The position numbers were made by a program, and so were the translations under genes. From Candidatus Aenigmatarchaeota archaeon (lineage in GTDB: Archaea > Aenigmatarchaeota > Aenigmatarchaeia > QMZP01 > QMZT01), in assembly GCA_041489155.1 (NCBI GenBank), contig JBGPQP010000003.1, positions 47,744-111,743 on the forward strand: a stretch of 64,000 nt of DNA. The letters run 5' to 3'. This document shows positions 47,333 to 60,140 of the stretch, piece by piece. Numbering within the stretch: the stretch's first letter is position 1; each line of letters opens with the position of its first letter. A model generated the notes under the pieces. It was not told the origin of the DNA and made no database searches. It worked only from the letters and a program-made list of their open reading frames with translations.

Positions 47333-47470
47333 GCGGGGGTTCCCGAGTGGCCAAAGGGGCAGGACTTAAGTCTGTTTGGCTTAAGTTATGAGGTCTTCTG
47401 ACCTGTGATTAAGCTCTTTAAGAAATCCTGTGGCTTAGTGCCTTCCGGAGTTCGATTCTCCGCTCCCGCA
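47333..47470 (+). tRNA. tRNA-Leu(TAA) with a 54-nt intron at 37/38 (47371-47424)
   Basis: Acceptor stem GCGGGGG/CTCCCGC; anticodon arm CAGGA-CT-TAA-G^A-TCCTG; long variable arm; intron TTAA pairs with the anticodon (BHB-like). Confidence 0.92.
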
Positions 47471-48017: not shown

Positions 48018-50090
48018 TCATGCTCCGTAGAATTCTTCAAGGCTGCCAGTTATCGCTTCTCCTATCCTTTCCTGTTGCGTCGGGTCGTTGAGCAGATTGG
48101 CTTCCTGCAGGTTGCATATGAAAGCGGTTTCTATCAGCACAGCAGGCATCCTCGCATCCATGAGGACGCCGAGATCAGCGCCTCTTATGCCCCTGTCGGC
48201 GGTCCCCAGCGTGTTGACCAGCAGAGGTTGTATGTCTTCGGCGAGCTGCCTACTGCTCTGAAACATTGCATTGGAGCTGTAGCAGTTGCCTACGTTGCAT
48301 ATGTCAAGCACACGATTGTTTTCGGCGTCAGCCGAACACAAGCAATAAACAAAGGTCTCAGTTCCCACGCCATTACAGTTTTGGTCGCTGTTCGCATGTA
48401 TGCTTATGAAGATGTCCGCGTTGTTGTTATTTGCGACCGCCGTTCTCGCTGCGAGGTCAAGACTGGAGTCATCGTTTCTCGTGTATATCACCCTTGCCCC
48501 TCTGTTTGTCATTTCTGCGCCTATCATCCTTGCTATCTGGAGGTTCACTTCCCTTTCCACTATGTTTGTTCCGGATGGGCCCAGAGCACCCGGATCCCCT
48601 CCGCCATGGCCGGGGTCCAGCACGATTGTCCTGCCGGCGAGCGTAAGGCCAGGAGCTGTCGTGCCTCCTGGCGGCGTGGTTCCGCTTGGCGGAGTAGTTG
48701 TCCCGCCTGTGCCAGAAGGAGTCTGGCATAAAGACCATTTTGACTGCAGCTCATTGCCAACATACTCAGCCAGGGCCTTGTAACCGTCGGAGTTAAGATG
48801 TAGATGATCTCCGGCATCGTATCCTGCTATCAGCTTGTCCGTATCGCCTTCCTCCGTTTTTTCGTAGGCATCAATGACATCATAACCTGAACCTTTCAGC
48901 CATGTGTTAACCTCATCAATTTTTTGCTGCTTCGTCGCATCCCAGTTGGCGGAGTCTTTGCAGGGAAGAAGTGTGAGATAGACGACATGCACCTTCTTCT
49001 TGTCTGCCTCTTCGTGGATTTTTTGGAGGTTACTAATCACGTCATTCGCGCTTGCTCCGCCAGCTATGTCGTTGACTCCGCCCAGAACAACGACAGTATT
49101 ATACTTACCGTTCTCAGCGATGTCGCTGTTTTTCGTTATGTTGTCCAGCATCTGCGCCGTGGTTCTGCTAACCTCAGCGTCGCTGAAAATCACGTTTGGG
49201 CATATCGGTTTGTTGACCAGGTAAGGAGAGTACCCCATCGTGAGGGAATCTCCTAGCAGCAGGGTTTTGCCCGCGCTGCCGGCCGGGGCGCAAGATTTTC
49301 CGAAGTTCACCAGGAAGACCATGCTTATCGGCTCGAAGGCAATGCTTGCTCCGTTGGCAATAGGGAAAGTTTTTGACGTATCGGTTACCTTGACAGTCAC
49401 CGTGCAAGGTTCTGTTGCGTTGTCAGAGGTGGCGACGATTTCATAGCTGCCCTCTTTCGTGTTCAGCGTGCTTGTGCAGCCTTTTATCCTCCCGGCGACA
49501 TCTATCGCCTTTTCATGCAGGGAGAAAAAGTCGAACCCGTACACATTCTCCATCTTTGATGAAATTTCAACCATTATCGTTTCCCCGCCGACGCCATGGC
49601 TGGCGGTCTCTTTCAGGTAAATTGTCCTGTCACCTTCGGTGCTGACGTTCATGCCGGAGGCAGTTTCTGTGATGTTCATGCCCGGTTCGCTGAAGTGCGG
49701 CAGGACGACGTCCTTGCCCATGAAACTGTAGAAAGCATTGGTGCCGCTTGTGTAGCCGTTAAGGTTTTTCAGTATCTCAGTCTTGAGATTCTTTTCAATC
49801 TCGTTTTTATCCTTAACGAGCTCACATGCGCTTCCTCCGCTTTTTTTGCCTAGGTCGTACATCGCCTGGTAAACAGAGTAGGTCAGTGCGGTTTTTGCAT
49901 ACACTCTTGCGAACTTCAGGGCGTATTCGGCAGTGTAGACGTTGCTTTTTGCCTGTATTTCTGTTTTCTTGCTCGAACCTATTACAGTGCCAAAGAGCGG
50001 CAAGGAAACGGACAGCGCTCCCACTACCATTATCAGAGCTATAAGGAATCCTATTATGTAAATTATACCTTCCTGTCCTTTCATTGCCAT
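48018..50090 (-). CDS. Pilin-like N-terminus + SGNH/GDSL esterase + N-acetylmuramoyl-L-alanine amidase (Amidase_3)
   Basis: MKG|QEG followed by a hydrophobic helix. SGNH motifs GDSLT, GGVND and DHLH. T/P/G-rich linker. Amidase motifs LDPGHGG.DPGA, EREVNL, SIHAN and PAVLIETAF. Confidence 0.9.
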   Translation of the reverse strand: MAMKGQEGIIYIIGFLIALIMVVGALSVSLPLFGTVIGSSKKTEIQAKSNVYTAEYALKFARVYAKTALTYSVYQAMYDLGKKSGGSACELVKDKNEIEKNLKTEILKNLNGYTSGTNAFYSFMGKDVVLPHFSEPGMNITETASGMNVSTEGDRTIYLKETASHGVGGETIMVEISSKMENVYGFDFFSLHEKAIDVAGRIKGCTSTLNTKEGSYEIVATSDNATEPCTVTVKVTDTSKTFPIANGASIAFEPISMVFLVNFGKSCAPAGSAGKTLLLGDSLTMGYSPYLVNKPICPNVIFSDAEVSRTTAQMLDNITKNSDIAENGKYNTVVVLGGVNDIAGGASANDVISNLQKIHEEADKKKVHVVYLTLLPCKDSANWDATKQQKIDEVNTWLKGSGYDVIDAYEKTEEGDTDKLIAGYDAGDHLHLNSDGYKALAEYVGNELQSKWSLCQTPSGTGGTTTPPSGTTPPGGTTAPGLTLAGRTIVLDPGHGGGDPGALGPSGTNIVEREVNLQIARMIGAEMTNRGARVIYTRNDDSSLDLAARTAVANNNNADIFISIHANSDQNCNGVGTETFVYCLCSADAENNRVLDICNVGNCYSSNAMFQSSRQLAEDIQPLLVNTLGTADRGIRGADLGVLMDARMPAVLIETAFICNLQEANLLNDPTQQERIGEAITGSLEEFYGA

Positions 50091-50515
50091 GTTATCATCT
50101 CTACATATCCGGTTTTCCCGCCAGGCATCGGGATGGTGCTCTTCAGCAGGGTCGATGCAGGCGGCTCGCCTGATTTTTTGACAAGTTCGCCTGAGCTCTT
50201 CGCTTTGACATAGTAGTTTTTGTATGTCGCAAGCGTCTCGTCCATCTGCCTGCTCAGCTCAGGAGGCATGTTCGTCGCCTCGAACATGCCTATCACCTCG
50301 GCGTTTGTGTACTCGCCTTTCCTGGCGTTAAGGAAGCCGAGAATCGAGCTTCCCTCGTCCTCCATTTTCAGGACTATGTCCACATCGCCTCTTATTTTTA
50401 TGATGTTGCCTATGTTGAAGATGTACAGCAGAAGGATGACCAGAAATATACCTCCGCCTACCACAAAGGTCAGCGCCACGGCTTCCAGGGGTGAACCTCC
50501 CTTAAATTTCGACAT
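50081..50515 (-). CDS. Pilin-like membrane-anchored protein
   Basis: MSKFKG|GSPLE followed by a hydrophobic helix (class III signal-like, with E at +5). Confidence 0.7.
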   Translation of the reverse strand: MSKFKGGSPLEAVALTFVVGGGIFLVILLLYIFNIGNIIKIRGDVDIVLKMEDEGSSILGFLNARKGEYTNAEVIGMFEATNMPPELSRQMDETLATYKNYYVKAKSSGELVKKSGEPPASTLLKSTIPMPGGKTGYVEMITWQ

Positions 50516-50939
50516 AGAGACCCCCCACGCTTACTGTGCCATCAGCGTGCTCTATAGAGACAAATATCATGTGGTCGTAGTCGGATAAAGTGTCGGTATC
50601 AGCGAAGCCCCATTTCCTCCCGCTCCCGAAATCCGTCACCGCCGCGTCTATCGACGGCTTTTCTATGCCGCACACTTCCTTTATCTCCTTGTCCCTGTTG
50701 CTGTCGAGGAAGTTCTCTGTTATGAAATAATCCTTGTCGCCGCTAAGCCTGACGAAGCAGTATGCGACAGAATGGGCGGCCTCGACTTTCTTGATGTCGT
50801 CCATCGCCGTCTTTACCGCCCCGCTGATTTCAACGTTGCCAATCACTATAAGTATGAGGCCAGCTATGCCTGCGGCGAACAGCAGCGATTTGTAGACGTT
50901 CTCTAAATCCGTATACCCCAAACCTTTCTTTGTCATCAA
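50502..50939 (-). CDS. Pilin-like membrane-anchored protein
   Basis: MMTKKG|LGY... followed by a hydrophobic helix; Cys pair. Confidence 0.65.
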   Translation of the reverse strand: MMTKKGLGYTDLENVYKSLLFAAGIAGLILIVIGNVEISGAVKTAMDDIKKVEAAHSVAYCFVRLSGDKDYFITENFLDSNRDKEIKEVCGIEKPSIDAAVTDFGSGRKWGFADTDTLSDYDHMIFVSIEHADGTVSVGGLYVEI

Positions 50940-50944
50940 TCCAC

Positions 50945-52129
50945 CTAACAGAACATGAACTGCTCGTAATAGCCGTTCACGTTTTTAACGTAACTGACTA
51001 TGCGGCTGTTGACTCTTTTTTCAAGCACGTCCCACGTGCAAGGGTATGTGCCGCCGCTGCCGCCCGGAACGCAGTTGTTTATCACCACGCCTGGCCCTCC
51101 GTTGTAAGAGCCCGAGACCAGCCTGATAAGATTTTTATCGTCAATGTACGCGTACTGCTTGTCCTGTATCATCTTTACAAGGTACTCCAGATATTTTACC
51201 CCGTATTCTATGCTCGCCTTCGGGTCATACAAACCCTCCGGTTGTCCTGTGTACTTCATTTCCACCGCAGTCGTATAAAGCGTCTGCATCAGGCCGTAGC
51301 TCGCCGATATTCTGGTTTGGGCGATGTATTTGGTATAATCCCTTCCGGCCTCCTTTTCACCGCTCCTCGCGGGATTCTGCCTGAACCACTCCTCTATCGT
51401 CATTCCGTTTGCGGCCGTCATCACGTATTTCTGGTCATAGTTCTTCAGTTTCCCGTCTTCCTGCAGCTTGTAATCGTAATTTGGCTCGTATCTGTAGGCG
51501 TTCTTGTTCCAGTTGCTTTCCTGCTCGATTATGGCTGCCACGAGATTTGCCGCACCGGGTATCAGGTTTTGCAGCTCGCTTGCTCCGAGCACCTCGAAGA
51601 GCACGCCGCTATGTGCGTCGGGAATGCAGCCGCCTGCCTGGGAAAACGAAGAAAAGCCGCTTATCTCGACCAGTCCGCCCGGCACCTTTTTCAGCATGAT
51701 CACCCTCACGTCTGGGAGCGCCAGCTTGCCTGTCGTCTGGTCGACCTTCACGTCGCCTATTATGGGTACCTTGTCGCCGCTTATCTTGTCGCCGGTCCCG
51801 TAATACTTGAGCTGCACGTAATAATTGCCTATGGTCTTGAGCCCGAGGCTGGAAAGGAACTTCTTTATCGCGCCGTACCTTTCTATGTTTATATCATACG
51901 TATCGTTCAGGTCCTTGATTATCGAGCCGCTGTCCATCGACGACAGGAAAGAGACGTAAGTCGCTATGTCGTTCGCTATCAGCGCCATCTTCCCCTCAGG
52001 GCTGCTCTGGAGGGTCGCCTCGGTCTTGGAGTAGAGCGTTGTGACGAGCACTCCGACGAGCAGGATTGAGCTTATAAAAACTATCATTATGCTTACGGCG
52101 AGCGAGGCTGCTTTCATGACCATATTCAT
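50945..52129 (-). CDS. Membrane-anchored/pilin-like protein with a C-terminal SLT lytic transglycosylase domain
   Basis: MKA|ASL followed by a hydrophobic helix. SLT motifs AIIEQES, SYGLMQ, LYDP..SI.YGVKYL, SYNGGPG and YV..V. ATGA overlap with the upstream gene. Confidence 0.9.
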   Translation of the reverse strand: MNMVMKAASLAVSIMIVFISSILLVGVLVTTLYSKTEATLQSSPEGKMALIANDIATYVSFLSSMDSGSIIKDLNDTYDINIERYGAIKKFLSSLGLKTIGNYYVQLKYYGTGDKISGDKVPIIGDVKVDQTTGKLALPDVRVIMLKKVPGGLVEISGFSSFSQAGGCIPDAHSGVLFEVLGASELQNLIPGAANLVAAIIEQESNWNKNAYRYEPNYDYKLQEDGKLKNYDQKYVMTAANGMTIEEWFRQNPARSGEKEAGRDYTKYIAQTRISASYGLMQTLYTTAVEMKYTGQPEGLYDPKASIEYGVKYLEYLVKMIQDKQYAYIDDKNLIRLVSGSYNGGPGVVINNCVPGGSGGTYPCTWDVLEKRVNSRIVSYVKNVNGYYEQFMFC

Positions 52130-52689
52130 GCACATTCTGTTACAGAGCGGATTACTTCATCGCTGCTGGCAGGTGACTTGAGATCTATCGTCTTTATGCC
52201 CTTGCTGTCCGTGAAGATTTGATACCTGAAGCAGTAGGATCTTCCTCCTTCCAGCACAAGGTGGTTCCCGCCCGCCGGCAGCTGGAATCTGTAGGGTATG
52301 CCGATGCAGTAAGGGTTGTCCGCGACAGCGCTTTCGGTGCTGAGCCATGCGTAATCGAAGACCACGAGTATGTGCGAGGGCTTGGTGATGTCGCATTTAA
52401 GATTGCCCAGCGAAAAGCCGCCTATCTTGCTCGCCTCCATCCAGTTGTTGGTGACGATTATCTTTTTCACGCAGCTGCCCGCTATCACCGGCTGGTATCC
52501 GCTGTCCTTGTCCTGGCCGAACTGCCTGAAAAGCGAATGGAAGGCCTCGTTGACATCGAGGCCGCATTTGTCGTACTTGATTGCGTTTATCGCATAGAGA
52601 ATCGAAGGCAGTACGAAAAGGCAAATCATCACGATTACGAAAACGAAAATAATCTTTTCCTCTATGGCCAGCGTGCCAACCCTGCTCAT
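52126..52689 (-). CDS. Pilin-like Cys-rich membrane-anchored protein
   Basis: MSRVG|TLAIE followed by a hydrophobic helix; several Cys. Confidence 0.65.
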   Translation of the reverse strand: MSRVGTLAIEEKIIFVFVIVMICLFVLPSILYAINAIKYDKCGLDVNEAFHSLFRQFGQDKDSGYQPVIAGSCVKKIIVTNNWMEASKIGGFSLGNLKCDITKPSHILVVFDYAWLSTESAVADNPYCIGIPYRFQLPAGGNHLVLEGGRSYCFRYQIFTDSKGIKTIDLKSPASSDEVIRSVTECA

Positions 52690-52733
52690 AAAATTATTTT
52701 ATTTCCGGAAACTTAAAAACCAATGAAGTGCCG

Positions 52734-52874
52734 TCAGGGTTTGAAGAGGAACGGGAATATCTTGCTAAGCACAGCAGTCCAGCCGCCTGACATGTAGACT
52801 ATTAAGGCTATTGCCCCCATGAGGAGGACGAGGCCGATCAGCACGTCCAGAAACGGTAAGGAGCCTTTTTTCAT
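52734..52874 (-). CDS. 46-aa micro-pilin-like protein
   Basis: Not in the ORF track. MKKG|SLPFLDVLIGLVLLMGAIALIVYMSGGWTAVLSKIFPFLFKP; GGTGA SD. Confidence 0.7.
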   Translation of the reverse strand: MKKGSLPFLDVLIGLVLLMGAIALIVYMSGGWTAVLSKIFPFLFKP

Positions 52875-52887
52875 GCCAGCATCACCA

Positions 52888-53001
52888 TCACATCACGCCC
52901 ATCAACTTCAGCGAGGCCAAGATAGCTATGACCACCATCAGCAGCGTAAGCATCTGCAGACCATGCGCCGCAATCAAGTCCCCCAGACCAAAGCCTCTCA
53001 T
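52888..53001 (-). CDS. 37-aa micro-pilin-like membrane peptide
   Basis: Not in the ORF track. MRG|FGLGDLIAAHGLQMLTLLMVVIAILASLKLMGVM; TTTAAA element upstream. Confidence 0.55.
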   Translation of the reverse strand: MRGFGLGDLIAAHGLQMLTLLMVVIAILASLKLMGVM

Positions 53002-53110
53002 GATATCTTATTGGTTTTGGGATTTTAAATCCGCTTCAGAGCATAACAGAAGCGGATATGTGAAGGCTGGATATTCTAGCATTTAAGAAAGATTGTTCCA
53101 AATATTAATC

Positions 53111-54943
53111 ATGAAAGGCCTCGTTGACGAGAACGGCAAAATACTGGTTGAGGTCCTGATGTTCATGGTATTTTTCGCCTTCGGCGCCGCGATGTTGCTC
53201 GGCGCCTCGAAGCCTGTCGCAGGCTCGCAAAACTGGGTATGCAGCATCATACCCTGCCCCTTCGACAAGACCGCTTTTTACACGCAGACCGCGAACGAGT
53301 CCGCGGAAGCGGTCTGGTGCGCGATAAACTCGGTGGCGATGGGCAAGACCGACGAATCAGAGAGATGCATAAAATACGTCGAGGGCAAGGCGCCGCAGCA
53401 GTTCGCGAAAGATGCGAATGACAAGGTCATAAAATCGACCGCGGCAACCTTCAGCTGCAGCGTGGGCAAAGTGGATAAAAAGGTGGATGAAGCAAAAGGC
53501 AGTTTTTCCTGCGTTGTGACACAGTTCGAGCTGCCGCAGGACGTCTCGAAAACCAACAAGCTATTGCCCGGCTACGGTGACCCCAAATATCTCGTCTATT
53601 TCAACGAGTTCCCCGACGGCGAAGACGAGTCTTGGTCAACTTGGGCTGCCGTAAATGTCTTATTAACAGTCATACCAGTGGGTAAAATCCCTATTATAGG
53701 CAAGTTTGCTGAAGGCATTATCATGAAACCGCTTAAACTTTTAGGGAAAGGAGTTCTCAAATTAGGGAGTAAAACAATCGAATGGGCGGGAGGAAAGCTC
53801 GCTTTGAGAGCCGCTGAGTTTGAAATAAAAGAAAACGGAGAAATTTTCGTCAAAGGAATGTTAAAATCAGCTGCAGGCAAAATTGTTGGCAACAGTGTTA
53901 TATGGTATGACGGAGCAGAAGCGGCTATTGAAAAAACATTAGTCAGCGATATCGAAAGGGCTGCGGTGAAGGAAGGAATAGAAAAGACAGGCGTCGGCAT
54001 CGCTGGCAAAACCAGATATTATGCGCTTACATGGCTGGCGAGGGCTGCCGAGAAAGGGAGGCTGAAATATTTCTCAGATGATATAACCAAGATGTGGGTC
54101 AAAGCCGCCAACAAGGCAGGCCTTCTGACCGATGATGCCGTCGAATACCTTGTTAACAACAAGATAATCGAAAACAAGGGTCTGATAGCCTTCGTTGCCG
54201 AAGAGGAGCAAAAAGTCTTGGCAAACGAATTTACTCCGCTTCTGCAGAAACTATCAAAGAGCGGAGTCGCACAGCAGGATATAGATCAGATTGTAACTGT
54301 TCTGGAAAAAAGCCTGAAATCAGGCGGCGTTTCACCCATGACAGCTCAGGACCTTATAGAGCTACAGAAGGTCGCCGCTCCCAGCCTGGCGCAGAAGCTT
54401 GTAACTGCAGGAGTGGTGAGGCCAGGCGTGACTGCTTTCATACTTACGCCCAAATACATACTCGTTGGAAACACGGTAGGAGAAGGTCTCCAGTCCATTG
54501 ATGAAGTACTGGGCCAGAAATATCTTGCTGAAAACATCAAGGAAAAGACGCTGTTATTCAAGGACGCTGACCAGAGGATTGCCAGGCAGTTGCCTTTCAC
54601 GCAACCAATCTCCTTTTTGGAGACGGTAAAACTCAGAAAGCCAGTGCTGGAAAAGGACAAAAACTTTTATCTTGCAAGCCCATGCAAGGCCGATTTGTAT
54701 GTATGGAAATCAACCGACACAAATATATGCAAGGACGGCAAAAGAAGTTGCGTGTTGGTCAACGTCGACTTTAAAGATTATGGCAAGAACATGGACGCCA
54801 ATTTCTGCTACACCATGGGCGGACCGATAGGTGGAGGATTTCTAGGCCTAACACCTTGGCCGTGTCACGGCGTTGCATATCTAGATCAAGTTCCTCTGGT
54901 CAGCGATTTTTTAGACTGGATAGGCGTCGGTGAAAAATGCTAA
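53111..54943 (+). CDS. Large membrane-anchored protein with an MKG pilin-like start, Cys-rich flanks and a central helical domain
   Basis: MKG|LVDE followed by a TM segment; Cys-rich N- and C-terminal parts; Cys-free K/A/G-rich core. Confidence 0.75.
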   Translation: MKGLVDENGKILVEVLMFMVFFAFGAAMLLGASKPVAGSQNWVCSIIPCPFDKTAFYTQTANESAEAVWCAINSVAMGKTDESERCIKYVEGKAPQQFAKDANDKVIKSTAATFSCSVGKVDKKVDEAKGSFSCVVTQFELPQDVSKTNKLLPGYGDPKYLVYFNEFPDGEDESWSTWAAVNVLLTVIPVGKIPIIGKFAEGIIMKPLKLLGKGVLKLGSKTIEWAGGKLALRAAEFEIKENGEIFVKGMLKSAAGKIVGNSVIWYDGAEAAIEKTLVSDIERAAVKEGIEKTGVGIAGKTRYYALTWLARAAEKGRLKYFSDDITKMWVKAANKAGLLTDDAVEYLVNNKIIENKGLIAFVAEEEQKVLANEFTPLLQKLSKSGVAQQDIDQIVTVLEKSLKSGGVSPMTAQDLIELQKVAAPSLAQKLVTAGVVRPGVTAFILTPKYILVGNTVGEGLQSIDEVLGQKYLAENIKEKTLLFKDADQRIARQLPFTQPISFLETVKLRKPVLEKDKNFYLASPCKADLYVWKSTDTNICKDGKRSCVLVNVDFKDYGKNMDANFCYTMGGPIGGGFLGLTPWPCHGVAYLDQVPLVSDFLDWIGVGEKC

Positions 54944-54989
54944 GATTGTATCGAGAAATGTTTTTAAATTTCATCACATTTTTTGTGGA

Positions 54990-55562
54990 TTATACAACAC
55001 CGTTATTATAAAGATTGTTTATAGAAGGTAAGAAGTTCCCACCTCTAGTAGATATTTTTAAAGAATCTCTCATGCTTCCGTTTATATTTAAATCGGCTTG
55101 CATCATCTCAACTGAAGAATTACTCCTAATATTAATGATTGTCACATTACTTATATCTTGGGGGTATTTTTCTAAAAGTCTTCTGGCCTGTGTTCTAAAT
55201 TGATCAATGCTTCTAAACAAACCTAAATCCCCCCTGCCCCCTAGGTTCGTTCCCATTACTTTTAAAAGGTCTTCCTCTTTTCCTGGATTTGTTCTAACAT
55301 GCTGAAGCATGTCGTAAAAGGCATAAACAGCTTTTTTGGGCGTGTTAAAATCGTATGACGCATCAGGAATTCCATCGACGTAAAGAGTTTCGCCGATGCC
55401 GTAATTGCCACCGGCCGCGGCCGAGCCAGAAGCCCCATTCGCTTGAGGAGTTTTGCCGGTGCCGTAATTATTGCTGCCAAACGCCTTTCTTCCCAAAAGC
55501 AGCGTACCGGCAGCTGTACCCAATCCTAACCCAAGAAAATGCCTTCTTGTTATGTTTCCCAT
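54990..55562 (-). CDS. Secreted protein with a twin-arginine signal peptide
   Basis: ITRRHFLG followed by a hydrophobic stretch and KAFG; AT-rich. Confidence 0.7.
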   Translation of the reverse strand: MGNITRRHFLGLGLGTAAGTLLLGRKAFGSNNYGTGKTPQANGASGSAAAGGNYGIGETLYVDGIPDASYDFNTPKKAVYAFYDMLQHVRTNPGKEEDLLKVMGTNLGGRGDLGLFRSIDQFRTQARRLLEKYPQDISNVTIINIRSNSSVEMMQADLNINGSMRDSLKISTRGGNFLPSINNLYNNGVV

Positions 55563-55756
55563 AATTCCACATCCTTATTTTTAATTATGGCTTTAAGCTT
55601 AATTTTTACCACCTTTAAGTGGTTTTTATATTGAGCATAGCCAATGCTCATGTCGTTATTAAAATTTTGAATTTGGGGGTTTAAAAACCTTTTTGACCCC
55701 CTACCAGCCCTGAAAAAAGCCCTTTTTGGCTGCGGAGAGGGAATGTGGCCGGTAGA

Positions 55757-56077
55757 TCACGGTTTCCACGTGTTGAACGGGCACTTGGATACTAAGACTT
55801 TGTTGACCTCTTCGCATTTGCAGCCGCCCTTCGCGGCCAGTATCTGGGCGCAGCTCCTGGTCTCGCCCGTCACCTGGTTCCTGTACTTGGGTACGTTCCA
55901 GGTTCCCGGCTCTTTGCCCATGGCGGGGCAGAAGGTGTTGAACTCGGCTATGCACAGGTTTTCTTCCTGCGTGAAGCCGGTCGTTATGAAAATCTGGTTG
56001 CTGAAGAAGACTATCACGACTGCTGCGCAGACCATCAATACGATGGCGACAACAAGAATCTGTATTGGCATCTCCAT
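55757..56077 (-). CDS. Pilin-like Cys-rich small protein
   Basis: MEMPIQILVVAIVLMV hydrophobic N-terminus; C...C...P.TW.V...SC pattern shared with the neighbouring gene. Confidence 0.75.
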   Translation of the reverse strand: MEMPIQILVVAIVLMVCAAVVIVFFSNQIFITTGFTQEENLCIAEFNTFCPAMGKEPGTWNVPKYRNQVTGETRSCAQILAAKGGCKCEEVNKVLVSKCPFNTWKP

Positions 56078-56127
56078 ATTAAATAATTGGGAAAAGGCAA
56101 ATAAAAGATTTCGGCTTCATTCGCCGT

Positions 56128-56442
56128 TTATGGCATGGCAGGTACGGTGAAACCGCAGCTTTGGCACGTGGTGCTGCATGTACCGCCTATCAGGGCCTGG
56201 CATGACATAGTTTTTACTTCATTCGAGCCGGACTGCCTGACGTTCTTGGTCGCGACCGACCACGTCGGAGACAGCTGCCCGGTTGCCCTGCATGACGCGC
56301 CGCCCTCGTTGGCGCACTGGCTTCTTGCCGTGCTCATATCCGCAACTCCTATCATGCCTGTTCCAAAAATAGTCAGCATCACAAGCGCAACAACCAGAAT
56401 CACTATCGCAGTGACCACGAGCTCAAGCGACATCCTCGGCAT
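56128..56442 (-). CDS. Pilin-like Cys-rich small protein
   Basis: MPRMSLELVVTAIVILVVALV N-terminus; paralogous Cys pattern; GAGGTG SD. Confidence 0.75.
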   Translation of the reverse strand: MPRMSLELVVTAIVILVVALVMLTIFGTGMIGVADMSTARSQCANEGGASCRATGQLSPTWSVATKNVRQSGSNEVKTMSCQALIGGTCSTTCQSCGFTVPAMP

Positions 56443-56523
56443 AAAAACACCTCAACCCCTCAATATTTATAGTTTGATTAAGGTCATTTATAAAGTTTGG
56501 TTTTTGCTGCGGAGGACGCGTTA

Positions 56524-56685
56524 TCAGCCAGTTTTGATGGGCACACCCAGGTCTTTGAAGAAGTTGAATATGCCCTGCAGCATGTCGTTGGATTTGCCCG
56601 ACCAGGCGCCGGAAAGGGCCAGAAGTATGACCAGCGTCACTATCATCAGTAGCATAACCACTACAATCTTCATCGGGAATTCCAT
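56524..56685 (-). CDS. 53-aa pilin-like peptide
   Basis: Not in the ORF track. MEFPMKIVVVMLLMIVTLVILLALSGAWSGKSNDMLQGIFNFFKDLGVPIKTG; GGAGG SD. Confidence 0.7.
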   Translation of the reverse strand: MEFPMKIVVVMLLMIVTLVILLALSGAWSGKSNDMLQGIFNFFKDLGVPIKTG

Positions 56686-57572: not shown

Positions 57573-60140
57573 ATGAGGGCATGGGTTTTGTTTTTAGCGG
57601 TTGCAATATTGTTATCATTCTCGCCTTTCCAGGCGGAAGCGGTGAGCCAGAACTGCGCGCCTACAGCGGGCGACTGGTTCGTTAACGAAACAGTCTTCTG
57701 CGAGAACGAGGACATCGTGTTCAGCGGCAGCCTGCTCGTCAACGCTTCGGGCAACATAACCTTCCTGAATTCGAAGCTTGGCTTCAACTCGAGCACGGAC
57801 GGCGAGTTCGGCATAGAGGTGAACGGCTCATTCTATTTGATAGGCTCGAGGATAGCGAACAGTTCGGATACGAACAAGGCTTACACCTTCTTTTCAAACG
57901 CCGGCGCGCAGGTAGAGATGCGCGATTCCGTGATATATCACTGCGGCTACGGCACAACCGACAGCAAGAAGATGGGAGTTTATCTGAAATCAGACGGCTC
58001 CAACATCACCAACATGACCTTCACCGGCAACAACGCAGCGCTTATGGTCGTTTCAAACGGCAACAACATCTCGGGCAGCCGCATGAGCGCCAACAAATAC
58101 GGCCTCGATATCAGAGGGTCGGGCAACACCATCACCAACAACACGATATCGGCCAATAGCATCTATCCTCTTTATCTTTTTGGCGGGAGCGTCGTTTTCA
58201 GCAACAACGTCATCGAGGACAACACAATGGATGACTACATCTTGTTCGAGCTGAACGCCTCGCTGATAAGCGGCAACCGCTTCTCCCGCAACTCGGAAGG
58301 CATCAAAATAACGGGAAGGAACGACAACGTGACCGGCAACCTTTTCAGCCTCACCAACAGCACTGCTGGCAGCGCTGTTTATTTTTCGGATGCTGAAAAC
58401 ATAAGATTCACCAGCAATACGCTCCTTGATAACAGCGTCTATGGCGTCTACTTCCAGCGCACCAAAAACACGGTGATGGAAGGAAACCACATAAACAGGA
58501 CCAGCAGCATGGACTTTTACCTGCTTTCCGCTGCGAACAACATCATGAGCAATAATAACTACACCAAACTGGTGAGGAAATGGAGGCTTGACCTGCGGGT
58601 GTTGGACAACAACAATACCGCTGTCGGGCTCGTGAGCGTCACAATAAGGAATAATTTATCAATGTCAGTTTTCAGCGGTTCTACAGATACGCAAGGAAGG
58701 ATTAATTATCAAATCATCACGGAATTCATGCAGAATGAGTCCGGTGCCTGGAATTACAACCCGTTCTCAGCGAATGCGAGCAAGACAGGGTATTACGGGA
58801 ACTCGACCGCCTTCAACCTGACGAGCGACCTCTCGCTTGTGATGATAATCACCCCCGTTCCGCCTCCGCCGGAAAACGAAACCTTCAACTTCACGGTAAT
58901 CTCGCCTCTTAACGACACCTACACGAAGCGCAACCTTACGACTACTGGCATGCTCCTGCTCTCGGTAAGCAGCGAAAAGAATATGAGCTGGTGCAATTAT
59001 ACGTTCGGCAACGCTTCAGCCGAGCTTACCAAGACGGACCCGAAAGATTTCCGCGCCTACATAAACGTCAGCGCTTTCGAAGGCGCATACGCGGTTGGCT
59101 TTGTCTGCAGCTCTGTCGACGGGATAACGAATTCGACGGAGGCGTATTTCTCGATCTATCCAGCATATGAATGCACCGACAACGACGAATGCGACAGCGA
59201 CCAGAGATGCCTCCTTTACACGTGCGTAGATCTCGAATGCGGCTGCGGCTACGCATCGAATCATGCATGCATCGATTACGCATGCTGCAAGGACAGCGAC
59301 TGCAGCGGCAACCAGACCTGCGACCTGGAGGGACACGTGTGCGCCGCGGTTTCGTGCGGGTGCCCTGAAAAAATATCCAATCACCAGTGCAGCATACCGC
59401 TCGGCTACTGCTGCAACGACCTCCTTTGCGAGGAAAACGAGACCTGCGAGGACCACGCATGCGTGGAAAGGACGCTTTCCTTCAGAATGCCCGAAACCCT
59501 GGTTTACGGGGAAAATGTCACCGTACTGGTCTTGGACCAGGACGACAACCCTGTCAGCAACGTGGGCATAGACGTCAAATACCCTGACGCCGACCCGCCA
59601 ATAATAGAGTCTTATTACACCGACGTGAACGGCAAGGCCGAGATCCCGATAAAATACTGGGGCAGGGTCAATTTCATTGCCCGCAAGGCGAAATATTTCA
59701 CAGGCCTTTCTAACGCCCAAATCCCCGAGCCCATGAACTGGCTTTTCGTGCTTGAGATAATAGTCCTCATAGGCGCTGTAGCGGGCATAGCTGTGATAGC
59801 GCCGAAGTTCATAAAGAAGGGCGGCGTTTCGCTCGGCGGGCTCGGCGGAGGGCCGTTCAAGCTCGAGAAAACGGTTAGCGGTAACCGCGTGATGCTCACG
59901 CTGGTCAACAAGACCAAGAAGAAGCTGCAGGACATAACGGTCCGCGATTCCGTCCCCAACGGCGCGTTCCTTGACAGCAGGCTGATGCCCAAGGTCGAGC
60001 CCTTCGATCAGGCAAACGTGATGCTCACGTGGGAAATTCTCGAGCTGGGGCCGAAGGAAGAGGTGACAATCGAATATGAAGCCCGCGCCACCAACAAGGG
60101 CTTCTCCGTGCTGTGCGACAACAAGGAATACAGGGCCTAG
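57573..60140 (+). CDS. Cell-surface protein: signal peptide, parallel beta-helix, Cys-rich repeats, TM helix and a cytoplasmic C-domain
   Basis: Asn-rich NosD-like repeats, many NxS/T sequons, three C..D.DC...Q/E.C repeats and a TM helix near the C-terminus. Confidence 0.85.
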   Translation: MRAWVLFLAVAILLSFSPFQAEAVSQNCAPTAGDWFVNETVFCENEDIVFSGSLLVNASGNITFLNSKLGFNSSTDGEFGIEVNGSFYLIGSRIANSSDTNKAYTFFSNAGAQVEMRDSVIYHCGYGTTDSKKMGVYLKSDGSNITNMTFTGNNAALMVVSNGNNISGSRMSANKYGLDIRGSGNTITNNTISANSIYPLYLFGGSVVFSNNVIEDNTMDDYILFELNASLISGNRFSRNSEGIKITGRNDNVTGNLFSLTNSTAGSAVYFSDAENIRFTSNTLLDNSVYGVYFQRTKNTVMEGNHINRTSSMDFYLLSAANNIMSNNNYTKLVRKWRLDLRVLDNNNTAVGLVSVTIRNNLSMSVFSGSTDTQGRINYQIITEFMQNESGAWNYNPFSANASKTGYYGNSTAFNLTSDLSLVMIITPVPPPPENETFNFTVISPLNDTYTKRNLTTTGMLLLSVSSEKNMSWCNYTFGNASAELTKTDPKDFRAYINVSAFEGAYAVGFVCSSVDGITNSTEAYFSIYPAYECTDNDECDSDQRCLLYTCVDLECGCGYASNHACIDYACCKDSDCSGNQTCDLEGHVCAAVSCGCPEKISNHQCSIPLGYCCNDLLCEENETCEDHACVERTLSFRMPETLVYGENVTVLVLDQDDNPVSNVGIDVKYPDADPPIIESYYTDVNGKAEIPIKYWGRVNFIARKAKYFTGLSNAQIPEPMNWLFVLEIIVLIGAVAGIAVIAPKFIKKGGVSLGGLGGGPFKLEKTVSGNRVMLTLVNKTKKKLQDITVRDSVPNGAFLDSRLMPKVEPFDQANVMLTWEILELGPKEEVTIEYEARATNKGFSVLCDNKEYRA

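Follow-up and report, generated by a model that had tools for sequence, protein, structure and literature searches.

Why would a tiny, symbiont-type archaeon whose gene content shows no sign of murein synthesis encode, within one operon, enzymes of the kind that cut bacterial cell walls, and why would the proteins that carry these enzymes start with the short leaders that are characteristic of pilins? This question is posed by a stretch of 64,000 nucleotides from the genome of a Candidatus Aenigmatarchaeota archaeon (GenBank assembly GCA_041489155.1, contig JBGPQP010000003.1, positions 47,744 to 111,743 of the forward strand; hereinafter, the window), for which an original prediction, made from the letters alone, proposed a pilin cluster that displays peptidoglycan-degrading enzymes. 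Comparison with related genomes indicates that the conserved element of this locus is a set of non-enzymatic scaffold proteins and that the enzymes are their apparently swappable cargo. On balance, and with due reservation, we favor the view that an apparatus linked to type IV filament (T4F) machinery presents murein hydrolases to bacterial walls; the window would then encode the subunit half of a T4F-type surface apparatus that is conserved across this order of DPANN archaea.

The core of the locus is a minus-strand operon (53001-48018) of seven coupled genes, each encoding a short basic leader followed by a single hydrophobic helix (Table 1). The five larger genes (52689-48018), which had been proposed to form one operon, indeed overlap by 10, 14 and 10 nucleotides or are separated by a gap of 5 nucleotides, and two tiny open reading frames (ORFs), of 46 and 37 amino acids (aa), extend the operon to 53001. 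The claim of about eleven clustered genes starting with a hydrophobic helix was also borne out: there are 11 such genes in total, and each of the eight leaders originally quoted is present, with a K/R-G/A motif in g690, g144, g145, g396, the 46-aa ORF, the 37-aa ORF and g616, and R-V-G in g187; g106, g104 and g53 have an N-terminal helix with no K/R-G/A motif in this genome. The flanks consist of archaeal housekeeping genes, namely, trpB-like, trpS and alba on one side and scpB on the other.

Two genes of the operon end, as predicted, in domains of peptidoglycan enzymes, with the catalytic segments conserved among homologs or aligned with those of solved structures. With Pfam matches counted against the curated cut-offs (pilin families were sought at E <= 0.1), g396 contains an SLT domain (PF01464, GH23; E 4e-14, 52.6 bits versus a cut-off of 21.3) in which E206 of the IIEQES segment, which we take to be the catalytic glutamate of the E-S motif, and the glycine G281 of the GLMQ segment are invariant in 17 of 17 aligned homologs. 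The g690 protein combines two enzymatic domains downstream of its scaffold. One is an SGNH esterase (Lipase_GDSL_2, PF13472; E 6e-12, 46.8 bits versus a cut-off of 32.9), with block I (GDS, in LLLGDSLT), block III (GxND, in LGGVNDI) and block V (DxxH, in GDHLH) recognizable in the sequence, and the other is an Amidase_3 domain (PF01520; E 4e-49, 167.4 bits, profile positions 1-173 of 174), whose segments DPGHGG, VEREVN, SIHAN and LIETAF align with their counterparts in the chains 4rn7 and 1jwq and presumably contribute the zinc ligands (His, Glu, His) and the catalytic Glu. Judging by these motifs, the enzymes of g396 and g690 are intact murein-type hydrolases, and a genome-wide search identified them as the sole SLT and the sole Amidase_3 of this organism. 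Neither carrier contains a PG_binding, LysM or SH3 domain detectable with Pfam, or any other recognized wall-binding domain. The fusion of the esterase with the amidase was found only in the protein cluster of g690 itself and in cluster P0002 (683 aa, 66% identity); the other matches to the fusion were bacterial amidases that aligned with about half of the query at 30-43% identity.

By contrast with the enzymes, on which the original prediction had focused, the scaffolds are the part of these proteins that appears to persist, and the interchangeability of the cargo, as well as the atypical status of this genome, had been overlooked. When g396 and g690 were used as queries in relatives, the matches fell mainly on the N-terminal, non-enzymatic parts and in syntenic positions (aa 1-170 of g396 in 19 of 41 genomes and aa 1-265 of g690 in 37 of 41). 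As for synteny, which the original prediction suggested surveying across DPANN genomes, a block that consists of scpB, small helix-first genes, a gene for a large g616-like protein, the five-gene operon and alba recurs in 20 related loci. A Pfam survey of 73 homologs from these loci detected SLT in 16 of 16 g396 homologs, two of them near the cut-off, whereas the cargo of the other scaffolds varies: among the 18 relatives of g144 identified by BLAST, which are 317-408 aa long, 16 carry Peptidase_M23 and 2 carry Glucosaminidase; PG_binding_1 is present in 5 g690 homologs; Amidase_3 terminates two giant g690 homologs, one together with PKD and YkuD and the other with Peptidase_C25; and M15_4 also occurs as cargo. 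The modules either interrupt the scaffold, separating its body from a conserved final strand (for the g144 family, IPLPGG..G.VEL), or are joined to its end. In the genome analyzed here, g144 is a bare scaffold from which the enzyme insert is cleanly absent, in frame (alignment A3), and the genome-wide search found no M23 domain anywhere; what this atypical genome has instead is the esterase-amidase fusion on g690. Within a single genus, the cargo changes from species to species, being M23, glucosaminidase, PG_binding_1, esterase-amidase or none. The scaffolds are 22-42% identical to those of relatives whose TrpS and ScpB proteins are, respectively, 80-88% and 68-74% identical, a pattern of fast evolution that, as far as sequences can tell, is typical of interaction surfaces.

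The g145 scaffold has two invariant cysteines and the conserved C-terminal strand G.LYVEI, and in eight relatives it contains an insert of about 130 aa that Pfam does not recognize (alignment A2). An iterative search with hidden Markov models found 16 g187 homologs in the 20 related loci (alignment A5), and in 16 of 16 relative loci, the g187 homolog is preceded by one or two ORFs that encode 34-71 aa and combine K/R-G with a helix, including look-alikes of the 37-aa ORF (MKGF..G...helix...GYI). Two loci of relatives deserve separate mention. In genome G017, a separate 516-aa protein with LysM and Amidase_3 domains (L033:1675-3225) is encoded between the small pilin-like genes, so the amidase function can come unfused. 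In genome G004, of the same genus, the gene for the SLT carrier appears to be split into three short ORFs of 66, 59 and 94 aa (L036:5784-6421), owing perhaps to pseudogenization or to misassembly; both the g690-type scaffold and the M23 carrier are intact there.

A profile of the g690 scaffold (g690N) matched 142 of the 371 genomes of the phylum and 83 of the 90 other genomes in families f1-f6 of the order, and among 1.84 billion representative proteins, it yielded 353 matches at E <= 0.001, always aligned from the N-terminus. In 97 of the longer proteins among the best 150 members of this family, we detected SLT (12), PG_binding_1 (9), Amidase_3 (4) and GDSL (2), along with M23, YkuD and M15_4, once each, and PKD, fn3 and M64, also once each, so that the recognized cargo, by domain assignment, is almost all murein-directed. 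The M23 domain was found in 124 of the 371 genomes of the phylum and in 49 of 90 in the order; for 43 of these 49, the coordinates place the M23 match less than 600 bp from a scaffold match.

This breadth bears on the trivial explanation that the window is a chimeric contig, a bacterial contaminant or a viral lysis cassette. We give almost no credence to this possibility: the nearest relatives of the amidase domain outside the lineage are bacterial, as indicated above, but archaeal alba/trpS and scpB flank the operon in an arrangement shared with relatives, the GC content is even across the region, identical short contigs cover 29 and 25 of 30 bins in two sediment metagenomes from other studies (X3 and X4; none of these contigs bridges the whole locus), and the scaffold family is nearly ubiquitous in the order. 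The recurrence of the scpB-to-alba synteny in relatives shows that the contig is not a chimera, which disposes of one potential refutation of the original prediction. A prophage or virus lysis cassette was considered and rejected given the conserved chromosomal synteny, and so was a conjugation-type VirB1/VirB8 module, in view of the same synteny, the lack of a VirB4 or coupling protein nearby and the insignificance of the VirB8-like Foldseek matches.

A more substantive question is whose wall polymer these enzymes attack. The genome (1.13 Mb in 39 contigs, with 89.65% completeness, so that about 10% is unseen) yielded no SEDS protein in our search and only one Mur-ligase-like gene (Mur_ligase_M, C3:45041-45445), in agreement with the original claim that bacterial murein enzymes are encoded here by an archaeon that does not make murein. 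The SLT, Amidase_3, M23, YkuD, M15_4 and PG_binding_1 families act on the chemistry of N-acetylmuramic acid (MurNAc) and its peptides, which is absent from pseudomurein, and bacterial SLT and M23 enzymes often serve trans-envelope machines. Such enzymes make room for the bacterium's own pili, and one could imagine, by extension, that the archaeal proteins remodel pseudomurein or a similar wall polymer, either that of the archaeon that encodes them or that of an archaeal host. The single Mur_ligase_M gene is compatible with this possibility, as is the observation, in the part of the source that we drew on, that all cultivated DPANN archaea attach to archaeal hosts (PMC11291902). We nevertheless consider such remodeling very improbable, given the lack of SEDS in the genome search, with a solitary Mur-ligase-like gene, the targeting of MurNAc-peptide chemistry by the cargo families and the failure of control searches for SLT, Amidase_3 and M23 to find any match in four archaeal genomes.

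How the enzymes would be held at the cell surface is suggested by the leaders. A K/R-G/A motif followed by a hydrophobic helix is the archaeal class III (type IV pilin) signal, and such a motif is located just before the helix in 76 of the 85 members of five scaffold families (13/17 for g187, 13/17 for g396, 13/13 for g145, 18/19 for g144 and 19/19 for g690, by an automated tally in which misses at the edges of the scanned interval were corrected by eye from the alignments). In the alignments themselves, K-[GA] is found in 18 of 18 rows for the g690 scaffold (A1) and K/R-G/A in 13 of 13 for g145 (A2), and the helix directly follows the putative cleavage site in the g690 and g144 families. The background is much lower: among the 1255 ORFs of the genome, 183 have an N-terminal helix with no more than two transmembrane (TM) segments, and 39 of these show K/R-G/A before the helix. 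Genome-wide, this amounts to roughly one leader per 29 kb of the 1.13 Mb as against eight within 9 kb at the locus, so the leaders cluster more than expected by chance, with the qualification that the genome-wide scan is crude (greedy ORF calling, no ORFs under 45 aa, a strict spacing rule) and flagged only three of the proteins of the operon itself, missing g145 and g187. The typical pilin candidates of this genome share a KGQ-type site. At the level of sequence, the leaders are conserved and conform to the class III pattern.

Structural modeling of two scaffolds gave divergent outcomes with respect to the predicted pilin fold. The model of g690N (pLDDT 82, pTM 0.72), in which the helix is broken at aa 30-38, has as its best structural match the minor pseudopilin GspK (3ci0_K; Z 7.4, rmsd 2.9, 96 residues); among the 50 matches listed, 16 are type IV pilins or pseudopilins that cover both halves of the model, and the minor pilin 7o5y of Streptococcus sanguinis is found among the fold matches with Z 4.9. 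Accordingly modeled, the g690 scaffold resembles a minor pseudopilin, whereas the model of g144 does not, as discussed below. The top Foldseek matches of g690N, MRP1/2 and PURA, were disregarded given TM-scores of 0.16 or less. A weak ArlG-like NCBIfam match was noted for aa 10-84 of g396 (E 6.5e-4), with 19.7 bits, that is, well below the cut-off of 110. For g145, the nearest clusters in the ESM Atlas are unnamed archaeal proteins (0.93), and the nearest named one, DUF7287 (0.85), is a lead only. NCBIfam yielded nothing for g144, g187, g616 and g104; g616 also had no Pfam match, and its best ESM Atlas score (0.77) was uninformative.

If these proteins are pilin-like, the genome should encode the corresponding machinery. 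The predicted components are all there, none of them inside the window: two prepilin peptidases (Peptidase_A24), five T2SSE ATPases above the cut-off and six T2SSF (platform) matches. We compared the coordinates of the ATPase with those of the scaffolds in 41 relatives and then examined four loci gene by gene. In these four sister genomes (G036, G027 and G033 from family f6 and G023 from family f2), the motor and the operon are contiguous, with all genes on one strand, in the order ATPase, platform, g616-like protein, small pilin-like genes, enzyme-bearing scaffolds and alba. The sister ATPases consist of about 750-870 aa (T2SSE, 1e-14 to 1e-17), the platforms of about 700-720 aa with 9 predicted TM segments, and the scaffolds bear M23, Glucosaminidase, M15_4, SLT and Amidase_3+YkuD. 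The g616 protein is homologous to the protein of 836-962 aa that follows the platform gene in the sisters (BLAST E 6e-15 to 7e-9 versus L053-L056). Moreover, the genome analyzed here encodes, on contig C4, a 751-aa ATPase and a 701-aa platform that are, respectively, 65-66% and 51-58% identical over the full length to the four sister proteins. The ATPase is FlaI/TadA-like and fits no named equivalog in NCBIfam; the platform shows a weak T2SSF match (23.6 bits) and no NCBIfam match, and its ortholog in genome G231, where an M23-bearing pilin-like protein is encoded downstream of it, scores above the cut-off (27.1 bits). By coordinates alone, 14 genomes from four families encode the platform and the scaffold on one contig and one strand, at a distance of 4.6-13 kb. 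Support for a link of the enzyme operon to T4F machinery comes from the sisters, in which the operon immediately follows the genes for a FlaI/TadA-type ATPase and a 9-TM platform. The simplest reading is that of an ancestral filament system in which accessory subunits gained murein-directed modules, most thoroughly in this order; two more distant motor loci contain no Pfam-detectable enzyme among the subunits.

The arrangement of the motor genes on C4 differs from that in the sister families, where the ATPase and platform genes are adjacent: here, they are separated by the gene for a protein of 2090 aa with a class-III-like leader (MKGFMKINLAAF...; L058:4371-10643), for which no Pfam or NCBIfam match was found. 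An intein (Intein_splicing, 7e-34) that includes a LAGLIDADG homing endonuclease interrupts the ortholog of the T4F ATPase in a more distant relative, G276 (L059:14899-17472). The two A24 matches are on contigs C6 and C22, the latter of which, like C28, has a GC content of about 39.5-39.8%, compared to about 46-55% for most other contigs; these two contigs may represent a mobile element or mis-binned DNA.

Several observations weigh against the view that we favor. Unlike in the textbook class III signal, K-G and the helix are separated by 1-10 polar or charged residues in the families of g145, g396 and g187. The g144 model (pLDDT 76) consists of a helix, a disordered linker and a Cache/PAS-like sensor domain (Z 7.0), and 0 of the 50 matches listed for it are pilins; furthermore, all fold scores, including those of g690N, are below Z 8, a range that the tool describes as common for unrelated folds. 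A Foldseek search of g690N against the PDB gave nothing at E <= 0.001, and no curated pilin or class III model from Pfam (at E <= 0.1) or NCBIfam matches any protein of the locus. The scaffold families show no detectable relationship to one another (hhalign probabilities of 36%, 4% and 47%), and the A1, A2 and A5 profiles, when compared with PDB sequences, gave chance-level matches to PCNA (E 0.03-0.5) and gp26 (0.15) or nothing. In this genome, the ATPase and the platform are on a different contig from the operon. They are also near-universal in the phylum (352 of 371 genomes), far more widespread than the scaffolds, so the phyletic co-occurrence of motor and scaffolds is uninformative, and the adjacency in the sisters might therefore concern the small pilin-like genes and not the enzyme carriers. 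Finally, the nearest solved relatives of the g690 esterase are generic, namely, the GDSL-like lipase 3p94 (3e-7), SGNH hydrolases (7tog) and the sialate O-acetylesterase/lysophospholipase L1 6njc (6e-6), none of which is named a peptidoglycan esterase.

Much of this would be expected if the proteins formed a membrane-anchored complex of ectoenzymes with no filament involved, in which the N-termini are uncleaved positive-inside signal anchors, the enzymes act at tight cell contact and the pilus genes serve adhesion. The combination of a helix, a flexible linker and a Cache/PAS-like domain in the g144 model is reminiscent of a single-pass membrane protein, and the lack of curated pilin matches, the polar residues after K-G in three families and the motor genes that are unlinked here and universal in the phylum all point in the same direction. 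We regard such a complex as a serious but rather unlikely alternative. The positive-inside rule does not demand a G/A after the K/R, which is nevertheless present in 76 of 85 family members compared to 39 of 183 in the background; the model of g690N is similar to GspK and other pilins; and the sister families have a fixed single-strand arrangement in which no unrelated gene separates the motor from the carriers. The central claim of the original prediction, that minor pilins carry wall enzymes, stands in part: the conserved leaders, the GspK-like model of g690N and the motor link are in its favor, and the Cache/PAS-like g144 and the absence of a curated pilin match are not.

On the T4F-linked reading that we prefer, the apparatus could work as follows. 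Five to seven proteins with class-III-like leaders would serve as scaffolds, with murein-directed modules appended to them or inserted in loops. One of the two A24 prepilin peptidases would cleave off the short leader, after which the 751-aa ATPase and the 701-aa platform would assemble the subunits, together with the small neighboring pilin-like proteins, into a pilus or a short pseudopilus, so that the enzymes are held outside the archaeal envelope, facing a bacterial cell. O-acetyl groups on MurNAc block the action of transglycosylases, and the esterase may strip such groups; the transglycosylase would then cut the glycan strands and the amidase would remove the peptide stems, resulting in local opening of the sacculus. 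Leader cleavage, polymerization, the position within a filament, display at a pilus tip, the substrate of the esterase and a living bacterium as the target are what we infer in this scheme.

A different use of the same enzymes is conceivable under either architecture, namely, scavenging, whereby an auxotrophic cell digests wall debris and muropeptides from dead bacteria for amino acids and amino sugars. The small 1.13-Mb genome and the detection of the organism's DNA only in sediment and wetland metagenomes (the listed sequencing runs include no RNA run) are compatible with this lifestyle, and feeding on peptidoglycan of dead cells has been proposed, in what we drew from PMC11537232 as a speculation, for Pacearchaeota. 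Nevertheless, we find scavenging unlikely: anchoring to the scaffolds restricts every enzyme to material that touches the cell, and swaps of cargo between species of one genus look more like adaptation to partners. There is also a bolder extension of the T4F-linked reading, which we entertain only tentatively, as something less than an even proposition. In this order, the near-universal T4F machine of the phylum would have become a cross-domain 'can-opener', that is, a pilus or pseudopilus whose minor subunits bear an interchangeable set of enzymes that attack murein (transglycosylase, endopeptidase, amidase, glucosaminidase, carboxypeptidase and esterase), re-equipped in each species to match the wall chemistry of particular bacteria.

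Presentation of functional modules on T4F subunits is not without parallels. The closest ones, perhaps, are the tip complexes of minor pseudopilins and pilins in bacterial type II secretion systems and type IV pili, such as GspK-GspI-GspJ (PDB 3ci0). As in these systems, an operon encodes four to six distinct subunits of low abundance, each with a short leader and an N-terminal helix, the neighboring genes encode a large partner protein and small candidates for the major subunit, the g690 scaffold has GspK as its best match and, in the sisters, a FlaI/TadA-type ATPase and a polytopic platform are encoded upstream. Unlike the bacterial tip complexes, the present system is archaeal and its subunits carry catalytic murein-hydrolase modules; its sequences showed no similarity to those of bacterial minor pilins, the g144 scaffold does not look pilin-like, and a location at the tip is putative. 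In the bindosome (Bas) of Sulfolobus, proteins with class III signals are processed by PibD, and the cargo consists of sugar-binding proteins for uptake. The bindosome is thus a precedent for non-pilin functional proteins with prepilin-type leaders and a dedicated T4F ATPase and platform, and the 751-aa ATPase has a weak BasE match (3e-19) that is far below the cut-off; by contrast, the cargo here is wall hydrolases, the lineage is different and the carriers are not homologous. In the modular type IV pilins of S. sanguinis, functional modules are likewise grafted on a pilin moiety, but that organism is a bacterium and its modules are adhesive and are not known to be enzymatic. A broad substrate range of PibD is reported in the portion of PMC4858521 that we used.

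Among archaeal wall-degrading enzymes, the most relevant are the modular secreted hydrolases described by Strock et al. (2025; PMC12352652), which combine a catalytic domain with a wall-binding domain, were identified in 175 of 3706 archaeal genomes and, in the case of two haloarchaeal hydrolases, were tested, in support of archaeal peptidoglycan hydrolases that kill bacteria. To the extent that the main text of that paper covers them, these archaea share with ours the lack of murein, hydrolases of bacterial ancestry and an interpretation in terms of action on bacteria. That main text contains no mention of pilin, class III, operon, SLT or Aenigma, with DPANN appearing only in the reference list, and the enzymes differ from those described here, which are fused to conserved N-terminal scaffolds within a multi-gene operon with a filament-motor link and, in g396 and g690, have no recognized wall-binding domain, although PG_binding_1 is present in the five homologs of g690 mentioned above. 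Single large extracellular SLT (GH23) proteins that were proposed to bind or degrade bacterial walls have also been reported in other DPANN lineages, Woesearchaeota and Pacearchaeota (Castelle et al. 2021, PMC8204110; Vigneron et al. 2022, PMC9723730); in the passages that we drew on, these are single giants of up to about 3000 aa, with no scaffold families, multi-enzyme operon or filament machinery described. The accessible text of two surveys of archaeal T4F (PMC4858521 and PMC13705601) includes no mention of peptidoglycan, murein or hydrolase. A full-text search of the literature, which covered main texts, found no published description of this operon; a supplementary figure of PMC13705601 that shows DPANN loci may be relevant in this respect. 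What appears to be new here is the contiguity of motor and operon, the split between GspK-like and Cache-like scaffolds and the cargo set of this particular genome.

We know of no host for Aenigmarchaeota-type DPANN archaea. The presence, across an entire order of organisms without murein, of fast-evolving murein hydrolases in putative filament subunits predicts physical interaction with bacteria, and the conserved set behind a pilus motor in the sisters suggests an apparatus for opening bacteria or feeding on them. If the can-opener reading is true, the whole order lives on or preys upon bacteria rather than archaea, and archaea have evolved an enzyme-armed type IV filament that has no bacterial counterpart, which would add enzyme delivery to the roles of the T4F superfamily. 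The swappable cargo on fixed scaffolds would also amount to a natural library of wall-cutting enzymes. The prediction can be addressed at the bench with named proteins, namely, g396, g690, the M23 carriers of relatives, the A24 peptidases and the 751-aa ATPase.

Table 1. Features of the locus, with coordinates given as positions in the window; a slash marks the end of a leader
Feature	Position	Strand	Description
g690	48018-50090	-	leader MAMKG/Q + helix; scaffold, SGNH esterase, Amidase_3
g690 scaffold, aa 1-265	49296-50090	-	conserved N-terminal family
g690 SGNH/GDSL esterase, aa 279-439	48774-49256	-	Pfam Lipase_GDSL_2
g690 Thr/Pro/Gly linker	between esterase and Amidase_3	-	
g690 Amidase_3, aa 489-685	48036-48626	-	Pfam
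g144	50081-50515	-	leader KFKG/G (FKG/G) + helix + small alpha/beta scaffold; final conserved strand IPMPGGKTGYVEM
g145	50502-50939	-	leader KKG/L, 10 polar residues, helix, small scaffold
g396	50945-52135	-	leader MKA/A + helix, scaffold aa 1-~190, SLT
g396 SLT domain, aa 196-353	51077-51550	-	Pfam
g187	52126-52689	-	leader SRVG/T (RVG/T) + helix + extracellular domain with six conserved cysteines
46-aa ORF	52734-52874	-	MKKG/S + one helix; tiny pilin-like protein
37-aa ORF	52888-53001	-	MRG/F + one helix; first gene of the minus-strand operon
g616	53111-54943 (listed from TTG 53093)	+	large protein, leader MKG/L; divergent transcription
g190	54990-55562	-	190 aa; weak twin-arginine (TAT-type) signal RRHFLGLGLG, not a pilin leader
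g106	55757-56077	-	small Cys-rich protein, N-terminal helix; candidate filament subunit, g104 paralog
g104	56128-56442	-	small Cys-rich protein, N-terminal helix (MPRMSLELVV...); candidate major filament subunit
g53	56524-56685	-	53-aa protein, one helix

Two of the starts in Table 1 call for comment: that of g616 is probably the ATG at 53111, and for g145, the likelier start is the ATG at 50936, which is preceded by GGTGG. Among the small genes at 55757-56685, g104 has 13 homologs in the loci of relatives, the more distant of which have the leader MKG/LSL or MKA/MSM; g106 has 9 homologs and no Pfam match; and g53 has one BLAST homolog, along with look-alike ORFs of 49-59 aa at the same position in L053 and L054. 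By contrast, g190 has no homolog in any of the 20 related loci and is likely to be a recent insertion into the locus.

Between trpS and alba, at 47333-47470 on the plus strand, there is a tRNA-like element with the acceptor GCGGGGG...TCCCGCA, a GGAGTTCGATTCTCC T-arm and a UAA anticodon context, interrupted by an insert of about 50-70 nucleotides; contigs from other metagenomes skip 47-69 nucleotides at this point (joints 47355/47373 to 47421/47425). ARAGORN and Rfam report nothing here, and this is probably an intron-containing tRNA-Leu that both overlook. On the other side of the locus, the plus-strand gene at 57573-60140 encodes a surface protein of 855 aa in which a Sec-type signal is combined with right-handed beta-helix/NosD repeats, Cys-rich repeats, a C-terminal TM segment and a DUF11-like end; this protein is retained next to scpB in three relatives with 33-38% identity.

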